Assembly (NCBI GenBank): GCA_030167865.1
Contig: JALAGF010005957.1
Coordinates: 1-33,525 of the forward strand
DNA length: 33,525 bases
DNA from: Craspedostauros australis
Taxonomy: Eukaryota
Reading direction: 5' to 3'
Numbering within the stretch: position 1 is the first letter of the stretch; each line of letters starts with the position of its first letter. The position numbers and the translations under genes were made by a program. The notes beneath the pieces are model-generated. The model did no database searches and was not told where the DNA came from. It saw only the letters and a program-made list of their open reading frames with translations. Below are positions 1 to 32,758 of the stretch, one piece after another.

Positions 1-246
1 ATATCAATGAATCAAACGAAGACGTCGCTGCGACATTGCTTTGTCAACATCTCACAAACAACGAAGAAACACAACAAATGACAAAAAGCACTTTGGGGTC
101 GTACTAGTCGTAAACTGAAGTATTTGATGCACTTGCCGGGTGTCCCGGCTTGTTCGCAATTTTGTCTGTGTGTCTGATGATTGGGAGCGCGCGCCACGAT
201 CGAAAACACTGATTTTTGAAACGGGTCGAAGGAATCGGAGACTGCA

Positions 247-260
247 TTTCGGCGCGAAAA
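247..260. promoter_or_regulatory. Putative E2F-binding site upstream of histone H2B
   Basis: TTTCGGCGCGAAAA; the minus strand reads TTTTCGCGCCGAAA, matching the E2F consensus TTTSSCGC, ~250 bp upstream of an S-phase-type gene. Motif match only. Confidence 0.4.
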
Positions 261-462
261 CTGAGAACGCGGCAACACAGCAGCACAGCAACACAACAGC
301 ACAACAACACAGAAACGCGGATGGGCACAAAGCAACAAGAGAAAGAGTCGATCTCCATTTGCTCATAACTCCAACCACACCCCAAACCTCACCCATCCAG
401 CACATATCACCACCAACAACCATAACAACAATCACAATAACAACACTGAGTACAGCGTATAT

Positions 463-495
463 ATTCACATTCACATTCACATTCACACTCACATT
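463..495 (+). repeat. (ATTCAC)n hexamer microsatellite just upstream of the H2B ATG (probable 5' UTR)
   Basis: attcac attcac attcac attcac actcac att. Confidence 0.8.
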
Positions 496-505
496 AACTT
501 TCACA

Positions 506-859
506 ATGGCCAAGACACCATCCAAGCAATCCGCCAAGGCGCCGAAGAAGGCCTCCACGGGATCGTCGAAGTCTAAGAAGCGCACGGAGACGTACTCGTC
601 CTACATCTACAAGGTGCTGAAGCAGGTGCACCCAGACACCGGAATCTCGAAGAAGGGCATGTCCATCATGAACTCCTTCATCAACGACATCTTCGAGCGC
701 ATCGCCACCGAGGCAGGCAAGCTCGCCACCTACAACAAGAAGGCCACCCTGTCCTCGCGAGAGATCCAGACCGCTGTGCGCCTCATGCTGCCGGGAGAGC
801 TCGCGAAGCACGCCGTCTCTGAGGGAACCAAGGCTGTCACCAAGTTCAGCTCCAGCTAA
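506..859 (+). CDS. H2B: Histone H2B (117 aa, intronless)
   Basis: [15 protein letters not shown]...[44 protein letters not shown]...[33 protein letters not shown] is a canonical H2B histone fold. ATG at 506; the longer ORF from 140 uses a non-ATG start and is low complexity. Confidence 0.98.
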
Positions 860-8191: not shown

Positions 8192-8854
8192 ATCCGTGCA
8201 CCATGGTATGGACCAAAAGAGGATCCATGCGTATGGTAGATAGGGGAGTGACTATGCAACTGAAGCGCAGAAATGTGACCAAGAAAGATGTGCCCACCGT
8301 TGATCATGCGCATTCAGATTGAAATCTCCAGCCCTCTCACTCTCTTGGGAGACTCTTCCACGATGTGTGGATTCTCAGAGATCGTCAACCACATAGAGCA
8401 GAGTAGAGTGCTATTGCTGCTTCCCTCCAAAAACTCGTGGATTCGAGCTAAAGCTAGAGACTGATTGAAGAACCAATACGATCTACCTGCATACTCGCAG
8501 AGTTCTCTACACTGGCGAGCAGTCTACCGTGTGATGACCATCTCGTGGTTTTGTTCTTCGCGCGGTCTGTCCGTCGCACGGAAAGTGCGTAGACACCAAC
8601 GAAAAAGGGATCCTCGTGATTCACTGTTTGCGCACATCGAACATCAACTCCGCATTTCTCCACTTGTTGATACAGTCCATTCCCATCGTTCACTGTCCAT
8701 TGTCTAACCCACAGCCAAATATTACATAATATTACAGAATACCTCTATATTAACGTACACCAGCACTGTCACCATGACCATCACTACCTGCAGGAATGAG
8801 ACATCTTCAACAGGCAAGAGTAAAAGCAGCAGCAGAAGCAAGGACGCCAGCACC

Positions 8855-9739
8855 ATGAATTCTGTGATCTCGCTGGCCGGCAGCAAGCTGAAGTCCAAGA
8901 TGGGCGCCCGTCTCAACGAATCGGCAGCGACGGGACCGTCCGAATTCGCCCGCCTGCAGCTCGAGAAGATGGGTTGGAAGGAGGGCAGCGGGTTGGGAAA
9001 GAACAAGCAGGGCATCGCGACGCACATCCGCGTCAAGAAGCGCATCGATGAGGAGGGCGGATTGGGGAAGAAGGATTCTCATCTCGATGCCTCCGTCAAG
9101 GGCGTCATCGGGAAGGAGTGGTGGAAGTCGAGCGTGGGAGATACCTTGGCTCGGTTGTCTGGTGGCAAGTCCAGCACCAAGTCTAGTGGCAAGTCCAGTG
9201 GCAAGTCCAGTGGCAAGCGAGAGAAGAAGGCCAAGAAAGAAAAGAAAGCAAAAAAGAACAGCAGCAAGCGCAAGCGAGAGTACACGGACGAGGAGCTCTT
9301 CCAGGCGACGGGCGGTGCTCGGTTTGGAATGCGAGCGCAGTCGCGTCAGGCAGGCAAGTGGCAGCGCACCGAGGCCAGAAGCAAACGGAGGCTTGAAGAG
9401 GAGGCCAATGCCAGGAATGCGGTGGAATGGAGCGGGCAGGGAGAGGCCATGGTTGTGCTTGGCACCAACGGAAAGCGCAAACGGTGCAAATCATCAAAGG
9501 ATGATGAGGGGAGCGAACCAATGGGCGCAGCTGCGGCTGGGGGAGAGACGCAAAACAGCGTCACACGCACAGATGGTAGCGCGCAACATACCAGTATTGG
9601 TAGCGACGGCAAGAGCGCAACGCCAGAAGGGCAGACGGTCGCGAAGGACACGGCGAAGCAACAACAGAAGAAGAAGAAAGACAAGAAAAGCAAGAAATCA
9701 AAGAAGTCAAAGAAGAGCAGAGATGCGAAGGTGGCGTGA
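8855..9739 (+). CDS. G-patch domain protein (PinX1/Pxr1/GPATCH4-like, probable nucleolar Prp43/DHX15 cofactor), ~294 aa
   Basis: G-patch SEFARLQLEKMGWKEGSGLGKNKQGIATHIRVKKR...GLG, then WW, a TDEELFQATGGARFGMRA motif and K-rich tails. An alternative upstream ATG lies at 8774. Confidence 0.85.
   Translation: MNSVISLAGSKLKSKMGARLNESAATGPSEFARLQLEKMGWKEGSGLGKNKQGIATHIRVKKRIDEEGGLGKKDSHLDASVKGVIGKEWWKSSVGDTLARLSGGKSSTKSSGKSSGKSSGKREKKAKKEKKAKKNSSKRKREYTDEELFQATGGARFGMRAQSRQAGKWQRTEARSKRRLEEEANARNAVEWSGQGEAMVVLGTNGKRKRCKSSKDDEGSEPMGAAAAGGETQNSVTRTDGSAQHTSIGSDGKSATPEGQTVAKDTAKQQQKKKKDKKSKKSKKSKKSRDAKVA
9158..9217 (+). repeat. 12-bp coding tandem repeat encoding (SSGK)-like x5
   Basis: tctggtggcaag tccagcaccaag tctagtggcaag tccagtggcaag tccagtggcaag. 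Confidence 0.8.
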
Positions 9740-10521: not shown

Positions 10522-12350
10522 TTAGCCGTTGGACGGTGCCGGACCTTGGTTGCCACCCATCGGTGGTGGCTGGGGCGATCCATTTGGCGGGGGCATTCCA
10601 GGTCCCTGAGGCATCGATGGACCGGGACCGTGGTGGTGCATGCCTCCTGGAACACCGGGTGGCATGTGATGCATGCCGTGTGGTGGGGCACCGTAGGGTC
10701 CGTGTGGCAGAGGTGGGCCGGGATGCTGCATGCCATGTGGTTGCGGCGGTCCCTGATGTGGATGCCCTGGATGCGGTCCCTGCTGTGCGCCGGGATGGCC
10801 GTGGGGGTGTCCATGCGGGTGTCCATGCCCGTGTGGCGGCGGCGGTTGCTGATGCTGGAATTGTTGCATCTGGAACTGCTGCCACTGCAGCTGTTGAAGC
10901 TGCTGGTTGAAGACCGGGCTCTGATGTGCCAGCTCGCCCGGGTTCATCCCCTGCATCCCCATCATGGGGTTCATGCCTGGCATTCCCATGGCACCCATCC
11001 CAAAGGGCATGCCGAAGGGCATGTTGCCCATGGGTGCCGGCATGATGCTCTGCTGCTCCTGGAACTTGGAAGAGCTGTGGCTGCTCATGCGGAGGCAGAG
11101 GGAGCGATCTTCCCTGACGAAGAACTTGTGGTAGTACGATCCCATCTCCGGACCGCGCGTGACGCGGGTGAAGCCCCACCTGTTGAGCTTGCGCGTGAAG
11201 GAGGTGAACTTGGTGGCCTTGAAGTATTTGGGGATGACCTGCAACGCGAACTTCTTCTTCTTGTAGATGATGAAGGATCGACCGTGCGGCAACCAGGCGA
11301 TCGTGTCCTCCTGTTCAGGCGAAGACAGGATCTCCATCAGCTGTAATTGGCCAGAATGAATACAGGAATTTATGAATATATGAGTGCATGCAAGTGCGCG
11401 GATGGAGACATGCACAATCGTGATAGATGCTCTGTCCAAAGTAATCGATACGATCACTGTCGTGATCACCGTCACGATCACCGCTACAGTGCAGTTGTTG
11501 CAGCGATCACAAGTGGTCATGCTAGTATTCTTGACTGACAAATACTGTGCCACAGCACAGCACGTAGACACCACAGCACGTACACAACACTTCAATACAC
11601 CGAAGAGATACTTGATCACACCCATTGTACCGCATTGCATCGCATCGCATTGCACTTCCTCGTATCACACGCACAGAGTAGTTATCAAGCAGAATCTGCA
11701 ACGTGACTTACCACCTGCGGGAAGGTCTTGGGTGCTTCATCCTCCATCTCCTTGATCGTCTTGGGCTCCACCCTCTTGAGGTTGGTGCCGTCCGTGATGA
11801 GGGCGTACGCCTGACGTTGCTGCTCGGCCCTGTCCTCTTCCGCAGCCGCAGTCTCCGCCGCGGACGCCTCTGCAACCATGGTCGGCTTGGGCTCGCCTTC
11901 GCCGCCTTGCTCCAGAGTTGGTGGAAACGCGGCTGGCTGTTCCGCGAGGTTTGCATCCGCAGCACCAACGGGAACAGCAGCTGCGTTGGGCTTGTCGCCT
12001 GCAGCTTGCCCCTCCGCGGGTTCGTTGGCGGTTGCCGCAGGGGGCGCAGCGGGTGCTACCACCACAGTGCCGACGTTCTCCGTTCGTTCTGTCTTGACGG
12101 TGCCTCCTAGCGGAACTGCGCTGTCCGCGGCGCTGGTGGGGTCCTTCTCATCCTTCTGATCTGCGATAGGTGCAGCTTCGGCCACTGGTGCGATCGCCGC
12201 ATCGATGGGCACCACTGTTGATGGTCCTTGCGTTTCTGGCGCATCGCTCAGAGGGTCTTCGATCGCATCTGCCATCGCATCTGCCATTGGATCGGTCGTC
12301 GGGTCGGCCGCTGCGTTGGTCGCTGTTGCTGTCGGTCTCTCGGATTCCAT
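10522..12350 (-). CDS. Heat shock factor (HSF-type DNA-binding domain) paralog A, ~485 aa; exons 12350-11712, 11340-10522
   Basis: Spliced TFPQV|LMEILSSPEQEDTIAWLPHGRSFIIYKKKKFALQVIPKYFKATKFTSFTRKLNRWGFTRVTRGPEMGSYYHKFFVREDRSLCLRM. Donor GTAAGT 11711, acceptor TTACAG 11341, phase 0. A/E/P-rich N-terminus and M/G/P/Q/H-rich C-terminus. Confidence 0.93.
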
Positions 12351-13316
12351 CTCTTCTTCAATGCAGAGCAAGGGACGTGCCGGTGTTTGGTATTATGGCA
12401 TACAATTATATGAGTGCGTATGAGTGTGTACTTACGCCACTCAACAAGCATTCGGAGGATCACGACCAGTCAACAAGAAAGAGCGCGGTGGACACGACAG
12501 ATCGCGAAACAACCAAATACGGTTTGTGAGGAATGGAGTGAGACGACGTTGTCTGTGTCCATCGTCTCATGAGACTCGCAGCGGATGCTGGTTGCGCTGT
12601 CCTTTCGACAGCCAAGAGACATGGGTCGCGCCACTATTCCTCGCTGCATCAAAATTAGACCTCGTGGCAAGACCGATTCTTTCTTGGCCTGATCGTACAT
12701 ATCTCCAGCAGAAATCACTGTTTTCTACGTAGTACCTACTTAATCGTGCTGAAAATGACTAGGGATTGTTTGAGGCTCTCACAACCGACACGAGAAGCAC
12801 AATGTCTGCAGAGACTTCGCAGTGACTGTCTTGTCTCGTGCCGAGCCACCGATCAGTTTCCATCATCACACAAAACGGAAATACAAACTCCAACAAGCCA
12901 GAAGCGTGCAAAACGCATCGCTTCTCAAGCGTTGGAGTGCGCGTTCCAAATGCCTCAACCACTGCACACACGTGCGTACGAAAGCTGACACTCAACTCCA
13001 CGGCTCAACACTCTACACTCAACGCTCTACACTGGAGACACTCTCAATGTAACTAGAATACCATACACATGACGGAACTCAAGACCGTAAGATATAATAT
13101 AATATAATACTTCTTTGTTAGAGCACTCTGCTTCTCTTTCTTTTGCTGAATGTCATTCTTTGGCAATGCATCGTACTCTACTGGCACTTGTAATATGCAC
13201 AGGCACATTTCCTTGTACTCGTGGTTGCACTCGTGCTCGTATCATTAGACTTCGGTTTCCCCCCTCACAATATTACCCCATCAGCTCCTTGTTTGTGATC
13301 GGTTCCAAGTGCGAAA

Positions 13317-16300
13317 TCAACCCTCCAACAGCGCATCGAGCTTGGAGAACTCTTGCATGGCGTTGTTCACGGCAGCGGTCATCTTTCGTCGCCGGGTTCG
13401 GCGTGACACCTGGAACGCAGCTGGCGCCTCAGCGTCGCCATCGGTCACGAAGAACGTCTGCGACAGTCTCTTCGCGGCCGACGTCTTCGTTTGCTGCATG
13501 TACGAGACTTGCTCCGATCGCTTCGCTGCTTTGTTGCCATCCAGAGGGGCCAGAGGGTTGCGGGAGGAACCTCCAGGGGTCTCGTGTGCGCCGTTCTCGT
13601 CTTCCGCCTCGCTGACGGCGCCTTCCACAATGCCGCCACTCGTAGTCATGGTTTCCTTTGGCTCTTCATCCGATGTGATGCTGGCGAAGGGATTCGCGGC
13701 ATGGCTGCGTGGGAGCACAGCATGTGACGTCGCTTTGATGCTGCCACTACCACTACCACTGCTATTCCTATTGCTATTGCTGTAGTGCGCTCGCAGCCGG
13801 TCCTTCAATTCGGATTTCTTTCCTGAAACTTTCAATCCCAGAGAACGGAGACGATTCTTCAGCTCGATCACCTTCAGTGTGTCCAAAGAGGCTTCGCGGT
13901 CCTGTGAAGGAGCAGCTGGCTCAACGGCCAACAGTGTTGGCTTTTTCGGGCCTCCAGATAGCACGCCAAGCTTCGCTCTTGGAGGGTCATGAGGAGTGGT
14001 GGGCTTGAGCCGCGGAGCGGGGGCCTTGTTCTCTTTATCCTCCGTGACTGCGAGTTGTGATGTCTTGCTTGTCGTGCTCTCTTCTCCCAATGCCCCATCG
14101 ATGGACATGCTGTAGATGACAAGATGGTTCATGGCGATCACCAGACACAATGGAAACAACCGAATTGAAACGAATTGAAATGAAATAACATGAATGGAAA
14201 TGCAGTGTTAGTTCCGTGATCAATATCTGACGCAACGGTGCCTTTTGGTTTCTGACTCTGCACCAGACGGCGAAGAACAGCAAGCGTGGACATGGACAGG
14301 CACGCAAAACAGATGCGGGCAAGCACCACAGACCAAAGCAGACATTGGTCGATCGCACTCATCGCATTCGTGTGCGTACGTGTATACGTATTCGAATGCA
14401 TCGCACGGCACCAATCTCAATCACTCCCCCACTCTCACTGCCACTTCCACTCGCAGCCCCATTATCAATACATACTTGTGAACGGAGATGTCCTCCTGGA
14501 TGCTTTGCAAATCTGCATGCTGCAATTGCTTCCCTTGCGGCTTCTTGGCCTTCGCGCCTGGCGTATCTGGACTCCAGTCGCTGTCATTGTGATCTTCGAT
14601 GTCGCCATCCTCGCTGTAATCATCACCATTGGCACCAGCATCATGATCGCCATCGGTGATGCGGAATGAGACCGGGTGACCATCACCCATCATTGCATTG
14701 GCAGCGGAAGGATGCTTCCTCTGCTTCTGCTTTTTCTTGACGATTCTCTTCTCCGTGTTGGAAATCATCGTCTCCGCCACTTCGTTCACGATGCTCTCCA
14801 TGCTGGCCTGCCTCTCTTGGACGGTGTGAAGACACATGCGGATGTTGGCAGCAACGGAATCACATTCCTCCCAGTATGGCTGCAGGAGCTCATGGATCCG
14901 GTGTGCCACGTCTTCGTTGCTGGCGTGTTCGCTCAGCTGCGCCTTCATCTCCACCTCAAGAGTGTTGCGTGTGGAATCCAACAAGGACGCCATCTCCTCC
15001 GCCTGCTCGATCTGAAGGTGCAGCATCTGCTCCTCGTTTCGTTTCCGTTCCTTGGACACGGCGGTCTGCACAGCTTGCGCCGTCGCGGTGGCATGCTCCG
15101 TCTCCATGGATTCGTTGCGAATGTTCGAAAACACGAGCCGGCGGAAGATGTCCACACACATGACGTTGAGATCGTCGGTGGACACGCCCTTGTCGCCCAT
15201 TTCGTACCGTTCCGATGAGGCATTGAATCGGAACAGCGCCCTCGACTCATTCATGGACTGCTCGATGGCATCGATATTCTTGCGCAGCTCATGGACGGTG
15301 AGGTTTCGCTCTGTCATCTCGCTATCGCTCGTAGCATCCTCCGCATCAACGCTGGATGATCGTGTTCGGCGCTGTTGGACTTCTTCGATCACCTTCTGTT
15401 GCTGTTCGAGTTGCGTTCGCAGCTTCTGCAGAGACACCATCGTCGCTAGAGCATTGTCAACGGAGGACGCCAACTCATCCGTGTGCCCAGCGCTAGATGT
15501 ACCATTCGCTGGTGAGGCTCCACGTGAGGAGGTGGACCTGGCACCGTGCGAGTTCGTGTGCGCGTGCGTATGAGACTTGCTATCGGTGTTGCCAGAGTGG
15601 TTTCGGCGGCTTCGACTGGCATGATGATCAGCCTTGTCCTTGTCGCGGAGGTCCTTCAGCTTCTTGCGCAGCGCATCGGCTTGTCGCTTGGCGTTGTCGC
15701 GAACCTTCTGCAGCTCCATCTTCAGCTTCGTACTGTCACGGACCAACTTGGCGGCCTGCTTCTTGGCCTCCTTGCGCTCGCTGCGTCTCTCCTCCGTCTG
15801 CTCCTTGAGCTTCTTCTGCAATGCCGCGCGGCGCTTCTTGTCGTTCTCAATATCCTTCGACAACTTGCTGCATTTGGTCTCCGCCATCTGCTTGAGTCGA
15901 AGGCACTTCTTGTGGCTTGCAACCTTCGACTTCAGATCCTGAATCTTGGTCTCGAGCTGCTTTACCTTCTTCTGGAGCTTGGATTCTGCGGAAATCTTGC
16001 TGTTGGTGTTTGCGGACCGTTTCGTTGATGATTTCTGCCTCTCCGATTTGAGCTGTTCGATGGCATCCTCCTTTTGGGTGAACAGGGCCTTCTCCTCCTC
16101 GTTGAGACGCTCCAGGGCCCGCAGGAAGTGCGTCCGCATTTTGTCCATGCATTCCTGCTCTTGGTTGGCACGCTGGATCATCTCCTGCTTCTTCTCGATA
16201 TCTTCGGTCAGGTTGGCCAGTTCGGACGTCAATTCAACCTGGTTGGCGAGATGGGCATGCTCATCAGTGTCAGTACCATCAGCGCCACTCCCACCATCCT

Positions 16301-18458
16301 TGGTTCCAAAGTCCGGTGTGTGCAGCAGAGATGTTTCCACAGCCTTGAGGTTGCCTCTCTGAACCACTATGGATGCAGCAGTCGAGCGGGCAACTTCGGC
16401 CTCCATGATGGCCTCGGCAAGCCGGCTCTTCAGCTGTTGCACTTCTATGCGGAGGCTTGCAGAGTTTGACTTCTCTTGCCCATCATTATCAGAAGCCAAA
16501 TCCAGTTCCAATTTCACACCCTGCTCTTTGGCCTGCTTGACCGCCATCTCCATCTTCTCCTGAGCAGAGTCGGCGCGAAGGGAGATGGTCAATGCATCCG
16601 CTGCTGATTGCTGTGCCTTGATTTCGAGCTGCTCCACCTTGGAACGCAATGAAGCGATCTCCATGTGTAGGGTGGTGATGACGTCTTTGGGATTCTTCAA
16701 GGATGCCATCCCGGGGCTTGAGGCTGCCAGTTGCGGTGATGCCAATCCTGATGCTGCGAGGGTGGCGGCTTCGGCCAGAGACGAGCCACCGAGGCTGTGT
16801 TGCATCTTGGCGCCGTTGGATTGCTTCAGCATGGACTCCAGGAGCACGATGCGGCTCTTCAGTGCCTGATTCTCTTGACGTAGGGCCGTTGCGACCTCTG
16901 CTGACACGGATGCTTCGATGACGTTCTTGACTGCGAGGTTCTTGATGTTGCGTGCCCGTTGAGCATACCGGAGCGTGTTCGTCGATTCCTCCACGTTGGT
17001 TTCGGCCGGCGATACGCACGCCACCATGACGGTGCGAGAATTTCCGCCCAAGGAATCCTGTAGCAGGCGCGTGAGCTTGGAGCTGCGGTAGGGCACGTGC
17101 GTGTGACCTGATGATCCACCTGGGCTCCTCTGTCCCACCTCTGCCAGACAAGAGACGACCTGGCCCAAAACGAACAGTCCCTTGTTGATGTTAATGCCTT
17201 CCTTCATTCGGTTGCCTTCCGCGCCCGTCCGCTTGATCCGTTCCGATCCAGCGAGATCCACGAGAGTCAATTTCGCTTCGACAGTCTTCGTCTGTTTCGG
17301 CGTCTCGGTGCTTTCTTTCGCAGGGTGTTCATCCGTGATGGTAGCAGTACTGTCGCTGTCGGCGTCGGCACTCGTGGCGATAGTTGCCGAGCTGCCAGAG
17401 ATGGCGACGCGCAGCGTGCAGATGGCATGCGATCGGCTGGAGACGGCATTCATCTGCGTTGATGCCGTCGCTCGTCGTTGCGACGCCGATTCCATGAGCT
17501 TGTTGACGTCCTTGGGGGACTGCACTGGGACCCATGAGAGGTTCTGGACGTAAACGCCATGTCGGCTGTCGCGGATGTGCAGGTTGGCCGCGGCGACTGG
17601 GTCCTGGTTGAGCAGATCGCGTGCCTCCTCGTTGTAGATCTCAAGGTAGGACATCTCGACGGTAACCTGCCGATCCCCCTCCAGTTCCTGTTGCTTTCGG
17701 AAGAGATCGTACACGGCGCGAGGGATCACGCCATCCATTTCACCTGGCACAGCGAGGTCGTTTCTACTTGCATCCTTCCCGTCTCCGTCTCCGTCTTCAT
17801 CGTCCGTGTCGTCTTTGACGGCGCACGCCGATCCCATGGTGAATGTCTTGCCGGCTCCCGTCTGCCCGTAGGCGAGCACTGTAACGTTGAAACCGTTGAA
17901 GATGTCAGTCTGCACGAGATCTCCCACCGTCTCCTCGTACACGCCAGCCTGGGTGGCGTTCTGGTCGAAGACGACGTCGTACTGGAAGTTGCGGTCGCCG
18001 TGCACTTGGATAGCATTGTTGTGCCTGGTGGCCTTCACGACCTCTCCTGCATTCTCCGCGAGTTCCTTCTTGGACAATGGTCGCACTCTGGCCACTACCT
18101 TCACGTTCTGGCCGGAGCTGCTGCTGGAACCATTGGTGGGCGTGGACGTGGATGCGGATGTGGACGTGGTTGCCGAAGTCATGGCGGAAGCGCAAGTGGT
18201 GCTGGATGCCATCGAGCCGCTGGATGCGCCCAACGGGTCTGCGTGCTGACCATCCGCTGATCTACCAGCAGCGTTGGCATGGCTCAGCTTGACTCTCTTG
18301 CGGCTCTTGGAGCTGTACGATGATTGGTTTCGGGGAGATGGACGAGTCCCATCATATCTCGAGTGCGATGAATGAGGATCTGCTGGATGATCTCCATCGT
18401 CCGAAGTTGAAATGTCAAGGTTGCGGCGCCTTTTGTGGAGGTTCGTTGATTTCGCCAT
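13317..18458 (-). CDS. Kinesin-4 family (chromokinesin-like) motor with coiled-coil stalk and C-terminal SAP domain, ~1591 aa; exons 18458-14476, 14109-13317
   Basis: Motor motifs VKVVARVRPL, AYGQTGAGKTFTMG, NAVSSRSHA, LVDLAGSER, EGININKGL, HVPYRSSKLTRLLQDSLGGNSRTVMVACVSPA, TLRYAQRARNIKN, followed by a long coiled coil. Donor AA|GTATGT (14475) and acceptor CTACAG|C (14110) join in frame (AAC) to the SAP-containing ORF 13317-14159. The motor call is very secure; the exon join is inferred. Confidence 0.9.
13785..13886 (-). other. SAP DNA-binding domain coding segment (in kinesin exon 2)
   Basis: LDTLKVIELKNRLRSLGLKVSGKKSELKDRLRAH matches the SAP pattern L..LKV.ELK..L...GL..SG.K.EL..RL. Confidence 0.9.
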
Positions 18459-19657
18459 TGTGCCTCCTGCTCCCCTTCACTGTGGGGATACGTATGCACT
18501 CAATGGGCCTGATCACGACCTCAGATGCAACGACGGCAACACACCGGCTTGATGCCTGCTTGGGGGGTGGTCGGGTGGTGAGTGATGGTCGGTTGATGCT
18601 TAAAGCTCGAAGCTCTGGACTTGATGCTTGATGTCTGATGTCTGATGTTAGAATGAGGAGAACTGTTGCTGTGGTGTGGTGTGGCGTGGATAGTGCTGTG
18701 GTGTGGATAGTGCTGTGATGTGAAGAGTGATGTGATACTTTGCGATGTGCAACTGCTGTTAGTTGCACCGTGCTTGTTTGTAAGTCAGCAGGGTGATTGG
18801 GCCAATGAACTTATGTAATGGTGTGGCAGTACACAATGTTCACGGCATGCACGGTAGTGGCGACAATGCCAACAACAGCCTTGAATGGCAACACGAGGTC
18901 TTGTTCTCCTCACCTGATCTCTGAGATTGCTCTGTGGTTCGACACCACTCTTCTCGTGGCTTGCAAGATGCAACAACGATCAGTGTGAAAGCCTTCGCTC
19001 TGTGGTTCGATTGCGGAAAGATGTTGCAGGTGCGTCCTTGTCGGCATGACAAGCCAGTGGCTTTGCTCCTCCATCGTTTCACTCAAGTGTTGTTGCTTGC
19101 AAGCGTGGAATTCCACGCTCGAAGTTGGTTTGGGTGTCAGCCACGCATCTCTCGTTGTTTGGTGTTCTTCTTCTTCATTTTTGAAATCAAACCCAATAAC
19201 GTCCAAACGGACATCAATCTGATTTGAATCTGAGTCGCCCGAGTCAAAGAAAGAGCGATCTTGAAATAACAAGAAATAACGTCTAAGCGTTATTATAGCG
19301 TTAGTAGTTGGCTATCCATGACTCGCTGTCACGAGATGAATCTCTTTCTTTTGTGTGATGTGTGGCCGATTCTGTGACAAAAGAACAACAATCGAATCCA
19401 CGATGCTGTTCCCACCACCCATCATCACTGGCCGGATCATCTCTCGTGACATCCTCCGTCAGCATAGTCGTTGTCATGCCCATCCTCGCAGATGAGCTGA
19501 GCACCTTCTTCTCAGTTCATCATCATTCATCTCCAATCACACCGTCGCACCGTCGCACCAGCAAGTCAGATACGCAGCCAGACATCTCCATTTCAATCCG
19601 CTCCACCACATTACGCCCCATCCATATTTGGAGGAGCGGTCTGCGGCGGACAGTTGC

Positions 19658-21175
19658 ATGATGGACGGCGTGGGTGTCGCTCTCTCTGCTCGGAGGACGG
19701 CTGGCGCTTCATCGAGGAACTCAGCGACGATCAGGTCCCCCGCTGTGTCGTTCATCGGTGCCGTGACGCTAGCTGCCTTTGGCAACGCGTTGATCGGGAT
19801 CGACTCCATTGGGTTCTGCGAGGCGATGAGCCAGCCGGCATTCTCCCAGGCCATCAAGGGGAAGATGATCCTCGCCCCGTTGACGCGCGGAGGCAACCTC
19901 CCGTTTCGTCGGCTGTGCGCGGACTTTGGCATGGAGGTGTCCATGTCGGAGATGGTGTACTCCCGCCCATTGCTCAAGGGCGACCGCATCGAGCAGGCCA
20001 GGTTGAGGAGGGCCAGCAACGAGCAGCTCTTCGGAGTGCAGATTGCGACCAAGCAGATCGACGAGGGCGTGCGGGCCATGCGAATGGCCAAGGAGGCTGG
20101 GGCGGACTTTGTGGATCTCAACTGCGGGTGTCCCATCTTCGACGCCACCAGGCGCGGTCTCGGCTCCGCCTTGCTGCGCCAACCCAACAAGCTCGGCCGT
20201 TTGGTGGAGGGCATCGTCCAGGAATCCCAAACCGGCCTGCCGCTGACAGTCAAGATCCGTCTGGGCTGCTGCGCCGACACTATCAACGTGCGGAGAGTTG
20301 TGAGCACCCTGCGCGAAGCCGGAGCCTCCGCCGTCACCATCCACGGTCGGACGGCGCAGCAGGGATACGCGAGGTCGGCCGACTGGGACCTCATCAATCA
20401 GGTCGTCGTGGACGGTCAAGAGTCCGGCAGTGACATCCCCATCGTTGGCAACGGGGATATCCTCACGTACTACGAGGCGAGGCGGCGGATCGAGGAGTCC
20501 GGCGTCGACAGCGTCATGGTCGGTCGCGGGGCCTTGATGAAGCCGTGGATCTTCCAGGAGTTCCGCGATGGCATCGACTGGAGGCCGGAGATGGATGATC
20601 GCATCGCGGTGTACCGGACGCTCACTAGGTACATGAAGGACCATTTTGGCGATGATGACTGGGGACGCAAGAAGGCTTGGAGATTCCTGCCGTGGCATTT
20701 CCACTTCTTGACGAGGTACAAGCCGTACCCGGAGGATCAGTTTGGCGAGATGTCGAAGGAGAAGCCCTTGATCCACGATCGGTTCGGCATCCCCGAAACG
20801 ACCACGCCTCTGGAGACGCTGATGTATCACAGGAGCGAGAAGACGCACGATCTGATCTCGCATTGCCTGTGGGATGCCGATTCTGATGCGGACGCGGTGA
20901 GGCGATTGAACGATCTTGCGGAGAGCCACACGTTTAAGGAGATTCTGAATGAGCAACCGGAGGAGACAGAGGACCCCACCACAACTGAATTGGCCAACAT
21001 ACCGAAGGGTGACGGAAAGAAGGGCCATCAACCGAGACGGAGCCGCAATCCAAAGCCAAAACGCACTCCGGAAGAGATCGCGGAAATTAGAGCGGAGCGA
21101 GCTGCGAAGAAAGCCAGGCTTGAGGCCGAAGCTGCCGCCGCCGCTGTTGCGGCTACGAGCGGCGCAGATCTGTAG
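19658..21175 (+). CDS. tRNA-dihydrouridine synthase, DUS3-like FMN-dependent catalytic domain (start uncertain: 19658 or 19826)
   Basis: LAPLTRGGNLPFRRLC, SEM, VDLNCGCP (catalytic Cys), G.GSALL, TVKIRLG, TIHGRTAQQGYARSADW, GNGDI, VMVGRGALMKPWIFQE; single long ORF. Confidence 0.9.
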   Translation: MMDGVGVALSARRTAGASSRNSATIRSPAVSFIGAVTLAAFGNALIGIDSIGFCEAMSQPAFSQAIKGKMILAPLTRGGNLPFRRLCADFGMEVSMSEMVYSRPLLKGDRIEQARLRRASNEQLFGVQIATKQIDEGVRAMRMAKEAGADFVDLNCGCPIFDATRRGLGSALLRQPNKLGRLVEGIVQESQTGLPLTVKIRLGCCADTINVRRVVSTLREAGASAVTIHGRTAQQGYARSADWDLINQVVVDGQESGSDIPIVGNGDILTYYEARRRIEESGVDSVMVGRGALMKPWIFQEFRDGIDWRPEMDDRIAVYRTLTRYMKDHFGDDDWGRKKAWRFLPWHFHFLTRYKPYPEDQFGEMSKEKPLIHDRFGIPETTTPLETLMYHRSEKTHDLISHCLWDADSDADAVRRLNDLAESHTFKEILNEQPEETEDPTTTELANIPKGDGKKGHQPRRSRNPKPKRTPEEIAEIRAERAAKKARLEAEAAAAAVAATSGADL

Positions 21176-25210: not shown

Positions 25211-28200
25211 TTACTCCTGCTGTTGATGCCGCCCATATTGTTCGTGCTCTCGTTGCGAGTTGTCTTGGAATAGATTTCCACCCTGTTGCTGCTGCTGCTG
25301 CTGCTGCTGTTGTTGCTGATGACGATTCTGCGGCTGAATCTGAGGGTCCATGTTGGCCACCATCATTAGCAAGTCTCGATTCGGCTCCAGCCTGGGCTCG
25401 GCGTACACGTCACGTCCTTGCCTGTGCGACTGCAGGATTTGGTACGGCATGGAGATAGACGAACCCGGCAATCCCCCAAGACTGTCCGAAGCAGCTGCCT
25501 GCTGCGTCTCCTGCCATGTCTGCTGCATCGATTGTTGCATCGATTGTTGCCACGCTGATCCCTGCAGCAACTGAATCTGGCGCGGCTCCTGTCCAGACGA
25601 CGACGACGACGAGGCAGCAGCAGCGGCGGCGGTAGCCGCCAGCGTTGGATTCTCGCCAGCCAAAGGACCGACAGCGCCTGCTCCGGTCAACGGACCAGAA
25701 ACTGATATGGCGTCAGCTGAACCAGTTCCAAAGAATCCCGCGAGTGATGGGTTGACCCCAACCCCAGGTGTTCGGTTCGTTCCATCCACACCATCCGAAG
25801 GAACCCCACCGCGAAAGCTACTGCGGTCGATTCCTTCCATTCTCCCGTGGAGATCAGTCTGCCTTCCAGACGATGCGATCCTTTGGGCCGCATGCTGCTG
25901 CAATCGCAGGTCGAGGTCGGTGATGCCATCGAACGGATGTGATCCTCCCTGGGTGCCCCCCTTCCCCTTGTCAAACCCATACTGCCGCCTCAAGAGTTGA
26001 TCGAGCGAATACTGACCCATCATGGCCGTGATTGGAGGGTAATCGCAACTCACATCTGGCTGCGGCTGGCCATCAGCACGGACGCCAGAGCTGCCGATGC
26101 GGCTGCCATTGGGATTACTACCATGCTGTGGCACTCCGACTTGATGTGCTTGGTTTTGCATTTCCTGGAGATGTAACTGCAGCGGAAGTGAGAGCTGATG
26201 CTGCTGCTGCTGCTGCGGCTGCTGCTGCTGTTGTTGTCGGCTGTGCTGTCCCTGTGATTGTGGTGCATGCTCTACGTGCTGACCATAACCGTGAACTCGC
26301 CTTTCCAGAGCCATCTGGAGAATATGGTTCGCGGATGACACGTTCTCATCGAACATCGTGCGATTGAGGTTGGAGGCGCCAAGCTGGCCCTGCGCCCCCA
26401 TCTCATCCGGTGCTCTCGTTCGCCCCTGCGCCAGCCTTGATTGTAGTTGCAGCATCGTTTGGGCTGTGATATCCGCCGTTGGGCCCACGAGTTGCTGAGA
26501 CGATTCTAGGTCTTGGGGCGCGTTGGGCATTTGGTGGGCTTGGGTTGGTGCTTGTGCGCCTGCTGGCGTTTGCATCTCTGCCTGTCTCTGCGGCTGTGTT
26601 CCCGGATACATTTTCATTGGTGTTTGTGCCTGCGCTTGTGTTTGTATTTGGGCTTGCATCTCTGCCTGCAGTCCTCCCTGCATCCCTGTCTCCAACCCCA
26701 CGTGCAACGCTCCCTGGTTCTGCAGCTGCGGCTGCATCTGCTCTTGATCTTGTTCGCGTTGCGGCGTCAACCGAGTGTTGCGGCCGCCCTGCGGGACGAT
26801 GAGGCCCAATGCGATAGGATCCATGGGCTCGATCTGCTGAGGCTCTTTTGAGCCGATGCAATTCATTTGCAAACAGAGGCGCAAATTGCCTCGTTGGAAC
26901 ATCGGGTGGTAGTAGGCGCCCGTTTCTGGCCCTCTGGTTACTCGTGTGAAACTCCTTCATTCGTTGCGCAAGAGTGCATACCATGCCATGCACACCAATC
27001 ACGGCAACAGGATGGCGTGACGATGAATGCACATGTACCACAGGTAGCAGGAATGCCAATTTGGCACAGATTTGAGTGCCAACCGAGCATCATCCCAAAC
27101 GGCGATTTCAAAACAAAGATGGCGTCCGAGTCAGATGGCAGGGCATACACGTACACGCGCGCACACACACGTGCATCAGCGCATCAGTCACATTGGAATT
27201 GAAGAGTTAGTCATGCGAAGTGATAAATTGATGCACAGCAGAAAAAACAGGAACTGACTTGTCGGTGTCATCTCTGTGCCGTAGCGTCCGAATATCTTTC
27301 ACTGGGCCGGATCGCAATGGAGCATCAAACCGCAATGCATGCGAAGTGTTAGCCTGGGAGACTGCAACCTGACTTCCATCGTTCACAGGCGCAGCTGACG
27401 TGCTTCCAAGGTCTTTGTGACTCATGTTATAACGTATTGAAGATTTAACGTGCGCATGAGCGTTCCCATAGATGGACTTGAGGGGAGGATTTCATTGCAG
27501 TACAGGCTCAACCCCGAGGCAAACTCCCTGATGATGGAAACCAATAGAAGCAGCAACAGCAGCATCAACAGCAACAGTTTGTTCAAGACATGAAGCGCGA
27601 TAGTACAACGCAGTTGCGAGTCAAGTTGCTTCTGCTTGCTTACCATCTGTTGAGCTTTCGCTGCGGGTGGTCCATTGTTACCGAGCGTTCCAATGAAGAT
27701 GGGAGCGGGCAGAAGCAAGCATTCGGTCAAAAAGAGTTGAAGAACGCCAATAGGCAAAGCAAGTGAGTACGATGCGTCTTCGATCTGGCTGTCCACGCAA
27801 GTATCTGATGAAGGAGGTACGCACAGGAAGACCATACCCATTCCGTCACAGGATGACACACCAGTGAACACTTCAGCAGCCAACACAACGCCATGATACC
27901 TTTTGCATCATGCAGTATGGTACAAGCAGCATACGAGTACATGAGAAAGCCAAAGAACATGAAGCCCCACAAGTTGCGAATAGTGCCATCCCAATACTTG
28001 AACGTATGACTCACCGTGAAGCTCGTGAATTTTGCTTTCTTGCTGAAGTAGTGTGGCATCACCTCGGTTGCAAAACGGTGCTTCTGCAAGATGATGAACC
28101 CTTTGCCGTGTGGTAGCCATGATATGATGTCAGAGAACTTCTCTGTGGAGAGAATCTCCATCATCTTTGTTATCAAACATGTTGGTTCCAACAACAAAGG

Positions 28201-29154
28201 CAAGGTCAAGGTCATGGACAAGGGCAGGAGAGTGTCGGCATGTACAAACGCGTCGGAAGGCGTGAGATGTGAATAGTGCTGTGTACCACGGCGGCGTGTT
28301 GGATTGCCCAGCCAATATCAATATCATGGCACCATCGCTGGGCATCTCGTGAGATCCGCAAGTGTCGACAACAGCATTCGTATGGACTGCCTCATTCGGC
28401 ACTCGTCTTGCGTGGCACGAAGCATTTGTACATCAACGTATCTGCAATCCTTGATGCGACAAGAAGCCAATACAATGGGGTCCTGAGGTTGTGACTGATG
28501 GCCCTCGTACAAGCACTCGTCCTTGCAGAGATCGTATTTGCGTATTGGTGCTACTCGTACGCATGCGACAGCCAAGTGCTGTGGCAAGAATGCTCGTGAA
28601 CGTGGCCGTGAACGTGGCCGTGAACGTGGCCGTCAACGTGGGAACGATAATTGACGTGTACACACTCTTACCTTTTGCGGGAATGTCATTGGCGCACTTG
28701 CATCGGCACATGACAAGGTACTGGAGTCTTTGTCTTTGTCTGACTTTTGGCCTGTGCGTTGCATTCCCAATGGCAACTTGCTCTCAGGTGTCGATGTAAA
28801 CAGCGGAACGGCGTTTGTCATTTCATTGGTCCACATTCGTTGCGATGCCGACGTTGAACTTTCGTCGTCAAGCCGATGATCTACCCGGAGCAAATCCTCG
28901 GCAATCGCAAGCTGGTTCTGATTGTGATATCCGTGCTGGCTCTTCCGTTGCTGCTGATGCTGATGCTGATGCTGATGCTGTTGCTGACCTTGTATTTGCT
29001 GATGGTGCTGCGGTGGCTGTTGCCATCTCTGAGCCATGTCTTGAGGAGAACTCAGTGTGGTGGTCTGACGATCATGTTGGGCATTCCCTTCTTGTCCCAT
29101 CCGTCGATTCCCATCAGGCTCGGGCGGGTCGAGAGGCACATTGTCATCATTCAT
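25211..29154 (-). CDS. Heat shock factor (HSF-type DNA-binding domain) paralog B, ~797 aa; exons 29154-28672, 28164-28015, 27660-27644, 26954-25211
   Basis: Spliced TFPQK|MMEILSTEKFSDIISWLPHGKGFIILQKHRFATEVMPHYFSKKAKFTSFT|RKLNRW|SFTRVTRGPETGAYYHPMFQRGNLRLCLQM. Donors GTAAGA, GTGAGT, GTAAGC; acceptors AAG, CAG, AAG. Long Q-rich C-terminus with polyQ. Confidence 0.9.
27644..27660 (-). other. 17-nt micro-exon of HSF paralog B encoding RKLNRW
   Basis: Minus strand ccgcag|CGA AAG CTC AAC AGA TG|gtaagc encodes exactly the missing recognition-helix residues, which are contiguous in paralog A. Confidence 0.92.
28595..28641 (+). repeat. 12-bp tandem repeat (CGTGAACGTGGC)x~4 in HSF-B intron 1
   Basis: cgtgaacgtggc cgtgaacgtggc cgtgaacgtggc cgtcaacgtgg. 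Confidence 0.85.
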
Positions 29155-32117
29155 CGTAGAGTGGTAATTGTGTAAACACTCTATAATCGATGGCTGGGAT
29201 GGCAACAAGGCGTTTGCTCTGTTGCGTCGCGGGAGACCAACTCCCCGGGGGCAATTGAAGGCCAGAGCACAACGCGTGGGGGTCGTACGACCTTGCAAGG
29301 TATGCCGGTGTGTTCAGCCGAGGTGCTGGAAGACCTGATCACGACGAATCCGAGTATATCCGCAGGCCTGCGTACGAGTAAAATGGGTGATTGCGGCCCG
29401 GTTTGCTGGGAACCTGTTCGGAGATGACTTTCCTTGCCACGTCCCTGGTGTTCGTGCTCGTCCTTTGCTTGGTTGTTTGCGTGTGCCTTGTTGGCTGTGC
29501 GATCGTTGCATTGCCGTCTTCCCAACTTGTTGGTTTTGCTGTTTCTATTTTGTGATGGCGCGAAGGCAGGGATGAAGATAAAAGAGAGGTCGCGATGGCG
29601 GTAGGAGTATTGTGAGGATTGGAGGGCGGTGTCGATGACAACACCTCCAACGACACGGTCGGAGGCAAGGGCAATGCAGTTCGGACAACGGTTGTGTTTG
29701 TGATGACAAATAATGATAAGGGGTTGGATCATGGATGCTCTACATTTGATGATGGATGAACACGGGCCTTTTGAACGTGTTCTGTGCGTCAAAAAGGCAT
29801 GAATTAATCTGCCCGAAGACGGCAACGACCTGTGTTTCAATTCACGATCTGCAGGCGACGGTCTCAACTTGATCCGAAGTGTCATGGACAAAAGTAGTCT
29901 GCAGTGATATTCACCTTTGCATCCGGCAGCTCCTCGACTTCGGCAAGTGGAATGGGTGATCGTCACGATGCAGAGCAGCTGGTCAGCGTATTTGTTGCCT
30001 GTGTTGCCTGTGTTGCCTGTGATCGATGATGTGTTCCATGCTTTGGATGTGTTGGATGTGTTGGATGTGTTCAGTGCCTCTCTCTGTTGGCTGGAGTTGC
30101 AAAAACATGGGCGCTGGCGGTTGATGGATGCGATGATGGGCGATTCAAGATAGGTTTCACCTCAGGTTTCTTCAGCATCGCCAGTCCATCGCCACAATCA
30201 ACGAAGGAGCACTCCCACACGCGCTCTTCGAGCCCTGTTGCCTCCACATCTCCTTCCCAACAGGGGATATCTTCGTTGCATTTGCCTTGGTCCTGGCATC
30301 CCTTCTCCTCTTGTGGCGCACGGAAGGTTCGCGTTTGTTTTGCACTTCTGGTGATCGGGAATGGGTGTATCTGGGTGAACCATCATCCGAGAGGGCTCTT
30401 TGCGACGGCGACACCAATGCGAAGAATAATTGTTCTGGAGGAATTCGATCAACCACACAATCTCGGGCTTCTCATGGATGAGCAATTCGCGCATCGTCAA
30501 AGTCTTGATGTTGCTATCGTTGTTGTTCCGACCGATCCTGCTTCCGCTCCTGTTTCTGGAGGGGTACAATGGCAGTACGGGTAACTATTTGGACAGTCGA
30601 GTATAGTGCTCCTGGGCACTCTGGAGTTGGGTGCCACACATGTAATGGCTCGTATGTCTGTGTGAAGAGGGGTGCTTGTTGGCTGATTGCCGCTCTTGGC
30701 CTCATTCAACTTATCGTTCGCTGCGCGGTCATTCACGATGCCATTCACCACAAAAGCACATTCAAGTCCATTTGATAGATCAGAGGGGCCAAAAATGCTG
30801 TGGCTTGGCAAAACATCACGCGCCTCAACATGCAGGATGTCGCGATACCGACTATCATCAACAATTACATGCTTTTTGGGGACAAGCCAGATTCGAAAAC
30901 GCTCCTCCGGTCAACTTTGACTTTGTCCCTTGTACGATGTTCTGATCAGAACCAGAACATGGGTGGATGCTGATACCCGCTACAATTGCTGAGTTTTTGT
31001 ATGGCCTTATCACACAAATCGCAATGAAGCAATGGGATAGGAGTGTGCAGGCGGAGACAGCCAGGCGCAGACAGATACGGGTGGGGATGTGCTGTACGAG
31101 CTTGTACGCCACAACGAACGCTCACATTTCTGAAGCAGAAGCGAAATCAGATCGCACACTGCTTGTGCTGGCGCCGCAAGAGCGCACTCCTCGCCACGCT
31201 ACTATACATAATACGGGTACGAGCTACACAAGTATAATAGGTTGTGCTGGGCAGCGCTTGTACGTCCAATACTTCACTGTTTGAAAATGGAGGCATTGGT
31301 GCCGTAGGAGTACTAGTCGTATCGTCCACACCAGTACCACTGCTTTGCACTTTGCACGACCATGACGGTAACCCACACAATTCGCATCGGAAGGAGAAAG
31401 AGAAGAACGAGGATCTTGGATTGATTCTTCCCTTCTCCTCCCCATTCTGAGTGTTCTCGCTTCCGATGAAGGAAGAGGCCATCCTCCCGGACAATTATGA
31501 TGCTGTGTGTGGCTGCCCATCCTTGGAGGCGGCATTTGAGTGGAGGAAGGGACTGGGAGAACACCCGAATCTGCTCTGCAGTATGAGTCCTCTGTGCTCC
31601 AAACAGCAAACCACAGTCCAATCGAAATAGCAGTAGGAGCACACGCAAGATCCATGGTACTTTTCATAGGAGTTGGAGTAGAAACGTGGAGTAAAACGGG
31701 AGCGCCGCATCTGCTTGGCCATGTGCGCGCATCATGCCGATACTTACGACCCCATTCAGGATAGAAACGTACGTTTTTGCGGATTTTTAAGATAAGCACT
31801 TAGATCATCCTATTATGTTGCAGAGAGTATATGAGTGAAGTTACAAGATCCTGGGTCTTGTAGTTAAAAAGTTTATATTTTTCGCATTAGTCTATGACTA
31901 GAAACGTTGAGCATGCGGACGTTGAGAGGCACATGAGGTTCGGAATCGCTAGTCGTGCTTCGGCTCGCTGTCCAGTCGTGTCCATCATCAGCGCTCTCGC
32001 ATTTCGCATTGGTGAGGCGGTTGGGTGTGAAGAAATGATGAGGATTGCGCAGTGGCGGCAGGCTTGCTGAGGCTGATGCTTCATCTGGGCTGCCGATCAG
32101 ACATCGCAATCCAGCGT

Positions 32118-32303
32118 TGTGGGTTGGTGGGTAATCCAGATCTTGATGCCCAGCTTGACTTCCACACTGCTTTGTTCTCTGTTCTNNNNNNNNNNNNNNN
32201 NNNNNNNNNNNNNNNNNNNNNNNNNNNNNNNNNNNTGTGGGTTGGTGGGTAATCCAGATCTTGATGCCCAGCTTGACTTCCACACTGCTTTGTTCTCTGT
32301 TCT
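32118..32303. other. 50-N assembly gap (32186-32235) flanked by an identical 68-bp direct duplication (32118-32185 = 32236-32303)
   Basis: The same tgtgggttggtgggtaatcc...ttgttctctgttct sequence lies on both sides of the gap, typical of an unmerged contig overlap. Confidence 0.85.
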
Positions 32304-32708: not shown

Positions 32709-32758
32709 NNNNNNNNNNNNNNNNNNNNNNNNNNNNNNNNNNNNNNNNNNNNNNNNNN
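32709..32758. other. 50-N assembly gap
   Basis: Run of N. Confidence 0.99.

Follow-up and report, generated by a model that had tools for sequence, protein, structure and literature searches.

A probable 17-nucleotide coding micro-exon in the recognition helix of a heat shock factor gene from the diatom Craspedostauros australis

The HSF-B gene and its uninterrupted paralog

We here describe a gene for a heat shock factor (HSF), designated HSF-B, which is found in a 33,525-nucleotide (nt) stretch of DNA from Craspedostauros australis (contig JALAGF010005957.1 of the assembly GCA_030167865.1, positions 1 to 33,525; hereafter, the window). The gene was read from the genomic sequence on the minus strand, and its pieces were joined by their coordinates; all positions are those of the window, and all features of HSF-B are on the minus strand. 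The putative first coding exon (exon 0; 28672..29154) begins at 29154 with the first in-frame ATG, a provisional start, and ends with TTC CCG CAA AAG, encoding FPQK. Its frame belongs to an open reading frame (ORF) at 28633-29313, in which the open stretch from 29313 to 28672 ends with FPQK and is followed by the donor gtaaga at 28671; FPQ[KR] also directly precedes LMEIL in the relatives described below, matching the end of exon 0. Intron 0 (28165..28671; 507 nt, GTAAGA...AACAAAG) is in phase 0 between FPQK and MMEIL. Exon 1 (28015..28164; 150 nt, 50 codons, MMEILS...KFTSFT) then encodes the N-terminal half of the HSF DNA-binding domain, in which the first half of helix 3 is contained, and terminates with TTC ACG at 28015, immediately before gtgagt. 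After intron 1 (27661..28014; 354 nt, GTGAGT...CCCGCAG, phase 0), which is apparently lineage-specific, there is a segment of 17 nt (27644..27660), namely CGA AAG CTC AAC AGA TG (CGAAAGCTCAACAGATG), bordered by cag on its 5′ side and by gtaagc on its 3′ side; it would encode Arg-Lys-Leu-Asn-Arg and the two first bases of a Trp codon. Intron 2 (26955..27643; 689 nt, GTAAGC...AATGAAG) is in phase 2 within this Trp codon, at a position that appears old and conserved. Exon 3 (25211..26954; ORF at 25211-26956) opens, after ...atgaag, with G AGT TTC at 26954, where the G completes the Trp codon, and encodes SFTRVTRGPE...YYHP..., with which the winged helix is completed, and then a long Gln-rich tail; the exon comprises 580 codons and a stop. 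Six of the six intron ends are canonical (GTAAGA/AAG, GTGAGT/CAG, and GTAAGC/AAG). The acceptor of intron 2 carries an AAG|GAG pair (26952-26957), and if the distal AG were used, Trp-Ser would give way to Cys with the frame kept. A check of the minus strand confirmed what a preliminary description of this DNA had reported, namely the break of the domain at KFTSFT|gtgagt, the 17-nt segment, the 354- and 689-nt introns, and all their coordinates. With translation from the first ATG in frame, the predicted product would have about 797 amino acid residues.

Exon 1 alone matched the Pfam profile PF00447 (HSF_DNA-bind) with E=7.4e-10 and 39.7 bits (cut-off 22); the match covers the profile positions 6-53 of 100, i.e., the first half of the domain, and ends just short of the missing motif. 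Exon 3 alone gave no Pfam match at E<=1, and its first 31 residues align to the domain of HSF-A, a paralog in the window, inside a 61%-identical tblastn match. The HSF-A gene (10525-12392, minus strand) is 16 kb from HSF-B on the same strand and serves as an internal control; in its DNA-binding domain (11083..11343, minus strand), KFTSFTRKLNRWGFTRVTRGPE is uninterrupted in the DNA. In the window, this domain and the spliced domain of HSF-B showed 61% identity with E=2.7e-34 in tblastn. The position of intron 0 is common to HSF-A (FPQV|gtaagt...acag|LMEIL), in which an intron of 371 nt (11711-11341) occupies the same FPQx|LMEIL site and none is found in or after helix 3; the tail of HSF-A is rich in Pro, Gly, His, and Gln. 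Judged from its domain profile and helix-3 motif, the predicted HSF-B protein belongs to the diatom HSF family and is unexceptional within it.

The 17-nt segment and the base-reading residues

When the three pieces of HSF-B are joined, KFTSFT, RKLNRW, and SFTRVTRGPE follow one another in a single frame with no residue lost or added. The helix-3 motif SF.R.LN..GF with its invariant Arg is present in HSF-B only once the 17-nt exon is spliced in; the Gly of the motif is replaced by Ser (RWSF), as is also the case in the relatives P0004, P0012, P0040, P0083, P0169, and P0192. The downstream frame leads to the same segment, in that exon 3 is open for 580 codons only when 3n+2 bases are added before it, and in the other two phases, counting from base 26954, a stop is reached after 183 and 4 codons. 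This 580-codon frame carries the stretch SFTRVTRGPE..YYHP..C[IL].SK..Q.I.PM[DN]P[IV]ALGL, which is also found in the relatives P0082, P0083, P0064, and P0217. The 17 nt are hence placed between a 3′ and a 5′ splice site and are needed for both the frame and the motif, as expected of a coding micro-exon.

One might nonetheless suppose that the 17-mer is a random piece of intron sequence and that the real gene model is different. We examined the window for a degenerate form of the micro-exon (YAG, codons for R-K-L-N-R, TG, and GTR) and found a single match, whereas no match appeared in any of 100 dinucleotide-preserving shuffles of the window. Also, there are 33 segments of up to 59 nt between exons 1 and 3 that restore the frame, contain no stop, and are bounded by AG...GT; only one of the 33, namely 27660-27644, produces RKLNRW, the hexapeptide invariant in the family, and no other model restores the domain. 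Because of the shuffle test and the enumeration of the 33 candidates, a chance origin is effectively refuted and is given a negligible probability.

The functional meaning of these residues can be seen from the comparison with human HSF1. The domain of HSF-A, the uninterrupted paralog, matched human HSF1 (5hdg_A and others) with E=1.2e-12, in which ftsfTRKLNRWGF is aligned over masfVRQLNMYGF. The Arg encoded by codon 1 of the micro-exon thereby corresponds to Arg71 of HSF1, and the Asn of codon 4 to Asn74. In PMC8379338, helix alpha-3 is described as the recognition helix, the specificity of HSF is ascribed mainly to the invariant Arg (Arg71 in HSF1), which forms bidentate hydrogen bonds to the guanine of GAA, and Asn74 of HSF1 makes a water-mediated base contact. 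The statement in the preliminary description that an Arg of helix 3 reads the G of nGAAn is thus borne out by the alignment with HSF1 and by that report.

We also made an AlphaFold2 model of the HSF-A domain from a 20-row alignment, the best model having a mean pLDDT of 80.7 and the other four about 50. Helix 3 of this model comprises residues 46-55, which by the numbering of the alignment correspond to FTSFT and RKLNR. In the model, the junction of exon 1 and the micro-exon is mid-helix, so that the micro-exon would hold the C-terminal, base-reading half of helix 3 and not the entire helix. The earlier statement that the micro-exon encodes the recognition helix needs to be narrowed in this respect: within the helix limits given by AlphaFold2, it is the C-terminal five of the ten helix-3 residues, and furthermore two bases of the Trp codon, that are encoded by the 17 nt.

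Intron history in the diatom HSF relatives

In order to place the introns of HSF-B among its relatives, 211 proteins (P0001-P0211) were pooled from three protein searches. A word-indexed search with exon 1 gave 81 matches with the best identity of 76%, and when 1.84 billion representatives were searched exhaustively without a profile, 1,739 matches at E<=0.001 were obtained, from which the best 150 of 1,739 were used (best single-domain identity, 80%). The query with exon 3 gave 6 matches, which were limited to the end of the domain and the PM[DN]P[IV]ALGL motif; about the first 50 residues of exon 3 resemble P0082, P0083, and P0064. The identity of exon 1 to diatom HSFs is 70-80%, and the named matches are all from diatoms (Odontella, Conticribra, Fistulifera, Minutocellus, Striatella, Grammatophora, and Amphiprora). 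In terms of the region around helix 3, the 211 relatives can be categorized into four classes: namely, those with the domain continuous through and past helix 3 (135), those flagged as stopping directly after RKLNRW (20), those differing elsewhere (3; P0079 with a break after RRLK, P0196 diverging after FTRK, and P0197 with a frame change), and divergent, mostly multi-domain HSF-like proteins without the motif (53). The motif SF[TN]-R-[KR]-[LM]-x-[RH]-W is contiguous in 155 of the 158 relatives having this region, which are the 135 and 20 proteins of the first two classes.

Among the 20 flagged proteins, P0176 and P0207 look by eye divergent but continuous, leaving 18 true breaks. These 18 short products were taken as genomic ORFs because their domain ends abruptly after RKLNRW; they have ...KFTSFTRKLNRW and then either end or continue with Y-V, Y-G, C-V, or F-V. 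Such continuations are expected from reading through TG|GTAT.. or TG|GTAC.., which would put the break at the same place and in the same phase as intron 2 (TG|gtaagc). The 18 break-ORFs include the closest relatives of exon 1, i.e., P0095, P0098, P0100, and P0102 (76-80% identity, among the best 150 of 1,739). In a Fistulifera-like pair, P0054 and P0162 read through at the Trp codon, and the gene model in NCBI (P0064) continues with ...RWNFVRVTRGPE. Furthermore, in P0217, which clusters with P0109, read-through yields 36 unrelated residues (about 108 nt), after which the domain is taken up again at the stretch corresponding to SFTRVTRGPE, giving SFTRVTRGPENGAYYHP...PMNPVALGL. Because the 18 break-ORFs and P0217 are interrupted at the same site, the position of intron 2 is, by this comparison, old and common to the closest diatom HSF subfamily. 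Read-through was also noticed at the other end of exon 1; the ORFs P0001, P0004, P0027, P0054, and P0066 have unrelated sequence ending in Q before LMEIL, which suggests that the position of intron 0 is shared by other diatoms as well.

The situation is different for intron 1. KFTSFT-RKLNRW is encoded in one piece of DNA in all of the 18 informative ORFs and in HSF-A, and no intron-type break at FT|R was found among the 211 sampled proteins. It had been suggested that the same micro-exon be surveyed across the diatom HSFs; in that survey, the micro-exon was absent from 18 of the 18 informative ORFs, in which the motif is undivided. One candidate for a second case of an FT|R intron was P0197, a metagenome-derived, Minutocellus-like protein whose frame changes exactly at FT|R. 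Its tail turned out to be RKLNRWGF... read in the +1 frame, and nothing abnormal is seen in P0213, a Minutocellus transcript of the same cluster; the frame change in P0197 is probably an indel or an assembly/frame error and not an intron. Intron 1 thus looks lineage-specific when compared with these relatives.

These comparisons point to the following course of events. An older intron, shared with the closest diatom HSF subfamily, would have split the Trp codon after RKLNR, and a new intron of 354 nt, intron 1, would then have entered the old exon 17 nt before its end, leaving the 17 nt stranded as an exon. Each of the flanking introns would be removed individually, and the micro-exon would be included constitutively; constitutive inclusion is indeed expected because the micro-exon is required for any functional protein. 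The gain of intron 1 would be the simplest history, and we infer a gain rather than many losses. Taken together, we consider it quite likely that the 17-nt segment of HSF-B is a protein-coding micro-exon that was formed by intron gain beside an older intron and is included constitutively. The micro-exon itself appears genuine and its inclusion is probably constitutive; we also infer that HSF-B is transcribed and spliced as modelled.

Several points weigh against this reading. The gene model of HSF-B was built from genomic sequence alone, and the HSF-B product of the organism itself was not found in the protein collections, where the best identity to exon 1 was 80%. The protein search with exon 3 gave no C-terminal match, all 6 matches being within the first 5-9% of the query. 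Proteins derived from transcripts or spliced models reveal no introns, and the set informative on intron 1 is accordingly smaller than 158. A metagenome scan for YAG, codons for R-K-L-N-R, and TGGTR (flank of 2000) gave at least 119 loci, and tblastn found an HSF at none of the 119; all of these are accordingly regarded as chance matches, and the pattern was too degenerate for so large a collection. Exon skipping does take place in diatoms, in that 1,099 genes with exon skipping are given for a nitrogen-starvation time course of Phaeodactylum in PMC5859163. Finally, a recent insertion with fortuitous GT...AG ends would, for some time, present the same picture.

This last point leads to the idea of a pseudogene, in which a 354-nt segment was recently inserted in a single exon ending with RKLNRW and the locus no longer yields a functional HSF. 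Diatom HSF families are large, and the loss of a copy could be tolerated; intron 1 was, furthermore, seen in no sampled relative, and what is known of the locus comes entirely from the genome. The segment nonetheless starts with GTGAGT and ends with CAG exactly on a codon boundary, with no residue gained or lost, and the downstream frame of 580 codons is intact with about 50 conserved residues at its beginning. Neither copies of the segment in the 33.5-kb window nor transposon-like protein matches were found, and its ends lack terminal inverted repeats. We accordingly regard a pseudogene as very improbable, and prefer the functional micro-exon described above.

As for the source of intron 1, when the three introns were compared with the 33.5-kb window by blastn, only short, low-complexity matches of the CAG/CTG type and no copies of intron 1 were obtained. 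A CTG/TTG-rich run in intron 2 (27540-27580, minus strand), which is the complement of Gln-type repeats, gives the only matches of the introns in the window, and these are to Gln-rich coding tails. A Pfam scan of the open frames in the introns and on the opposite strand found a family match for none of the six. For an introner origin of intron 1, many near-identical copies would be expected in other genes of the genome. Families of introners have been reported in Thalassiosira oceanica and in a parmalean, a relative of diatoms (PMC12130899). The frame of exon 1 stays open for 95 codons into intron 1 (27727-28014, minus strand) with a hydrophobic tail and without a Pfam match; frames as long were seen in 95 of 5000 shuffles, and this open frame is possibly due to chance and is otherwise unexplained.

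The rest of the window contains several other ORFs, which were recognized by eye from their translations: a histone H2B-like ORF (128-859, plus strand), a G-patch-like ORF (8708-9739, plus strand), a kinesin-like ORF of 1351 amino acid residues (14421-18476, minus strand), and a tRNA-dihydrouridine-synthase-like ORF (19496-21175, plus strand). Since most of the neighbouring ORFs are long and uninterrupted, the three long introns of the HSF-B domain stand out locally. Runs of N representing assembly gaps (32186-32235, 32709-32758, and 33286) are near the 3′ end of the window and far from the micro-exon.

Splicing control and comparison with known systems

The preliminary description regarded the micro-exon as skippable, so that DNA binding could be controlled by splicing. 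This proposal was not sustained in its original form; 17 is not a multiple of three, and skipping would shift the frame into an out-of-frame tail of 228 codons followed by a stop, with the loss of the C-terminal 580 residues. An HSF merely lacking its reading head would not result. In a broader version, the use of the micro-exon would be conditional, and skipping or intron retention would give an unproductive mRNA, or an internal acceptor would give an in-frame loss of Arg-Lys. The base-contacting Arg and Asn are indeed both encoded on the 17 nt, and at 6 nt into the exon, an AG (27656-27655) that belongs to the Lys codon AAG could act as an acceptor to leave an 11-nt exon (27654-27644), by which the frame would be kept and Arg-Lys lost. 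As a pure possibility, this form lacking Arg-Lys would be the only clean binding-dead isoform that the sequence permits. Also, a 15-nt inverted repeat with 87% complementarity (27718-27704 and 27640-27626) has its arms on either side of the exon and its donor. In the fold predicted around the micro-exon (-34.8 kcal/mol, z=-1.87), the 3′ end of the exon and the donor are paired, but 8 of 200 shuffles fold equally well, so that the fold is only marginally better than those of shuffled sequences. There are precedents for such control, in that exon skipping and intron retention both occur in Phaeodactylum (PMC5859163) and plant HSFA2 is controlled via splicing in the intron of its DNA-binding domain (PMC8483784). 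Nevertheless, skipping of the whole exon wrecks the frame and does not give a binding-dead yet otherwise intact factor, the AG within the exon is simply that of the usual Lys codon of the motif, and the comparison with relatives accounts for the arrangement as an accidental outcome of intron gain for which no function is needed. We thus consider conditional use of the micro-exon unlikely, and a little less likely still that it is an on/off element operated by splicing, whether through skipping or retention, perhaps aided by the stem, or through the internal acceptor giving an Arg-less, dominant-negative HSF. The regulatory reading is speculation in our view; if it were true, the protein lacking Arg-Lys could retain oligomerisation and behave as a dominant-negative HSF, the micro-exon would allow the DNA binding of a stress transcription factor to be adjusted through splicing, and the gene would parallel in diatoms, with the polarity reversed, the mini-exon control in plant HSFA2.

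Returning to the constitutive micro-exon, it has consequences for annotation and for studies of introns. Gene finders and ORF-based callers will miss an exon of 17 nt, and the HSF would then be reported as truncated, frameshifted, or devoid of the DNA-reading residues; when members of the very large diatom HSF family are counted or classified from gene models, the KFTSFT|RKLNRW junction should be checked. Also, the HSF-B locus offers a clean and datable case of micro-exon birth, with a new intron placed 17 nt upstream of an old one in a highly conserved helix, and would be useful for studies of intron gain in diatoms.

Compared with the known HSF winged helix (PF00447; human HSF1 and HSF2 and yeast HSF; 5hdg, 7dcj, 5d5u, and 1fyk), HSF-B has the same fold and the same recognition-helix motif, and differs from human HSF1 in having the diatom-type TRKLNRW instead of VRQLNMY and a long Gln-rich tail. 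It is the gene structure, and not the protein, that is unusual. The closest diatom subfamily (the P0109/P0217 cluster, P0095, P0098, P0100, P0102, P0082, P0083, and P0064/P0054 of Fistulifera solaris) shares with HSF-B the MMEIL/LMEIL start after intron 0, the extra residue before KFTSFT (F[SN].K.KFTSFT), the continuation YYHP...PM[DN]P[IV]ALGL, and the Trp-codon intron after RKLNR. Unlike HSF-B, however, the members of this subfamily have KFTSFT-RKLNRW in one piece of DNA without the micro-exon, and their Trp-codon intron is short where it can be measured (about 108 nt in P0217, as compared with 689 nt in HSF-B).

HSF-B also resembles plant HSFA2, as described in PMC8483784, in having an intron of the DNA-binding domain near helix 3 and a very short exon-like segment between splice sites. 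In HSFA2, a 31-nt cryptic mini-exon and intron-retention variants arise in that intron; the mini-exon of Arabidopsis HSFA2 is non-coding and used only at 37 °C, and its stop sends the mRNA to decay (PMC8483784). The polarity would be reversed in HSF-B, in which the normal protein depends on a coding micro-exon, whose omission would be the unproductive event.

No description of a micro-exon in a diatom HSF was found in the literature searched, which was one limited collection; the micro-exon of HSF-B would be a coding micro-exon of a familiar kind, whose location inside the recognition helix of an HSF is without a counterpart in that collection. Constitutive coding micro-exons inside conserved domains occur in plants and animals, and HSF-B likewise has a very short exon that encodes part of a conserved motif, is flanked by canonical splice sites, and plausibly arose from the gain of an intron beside an existing one.

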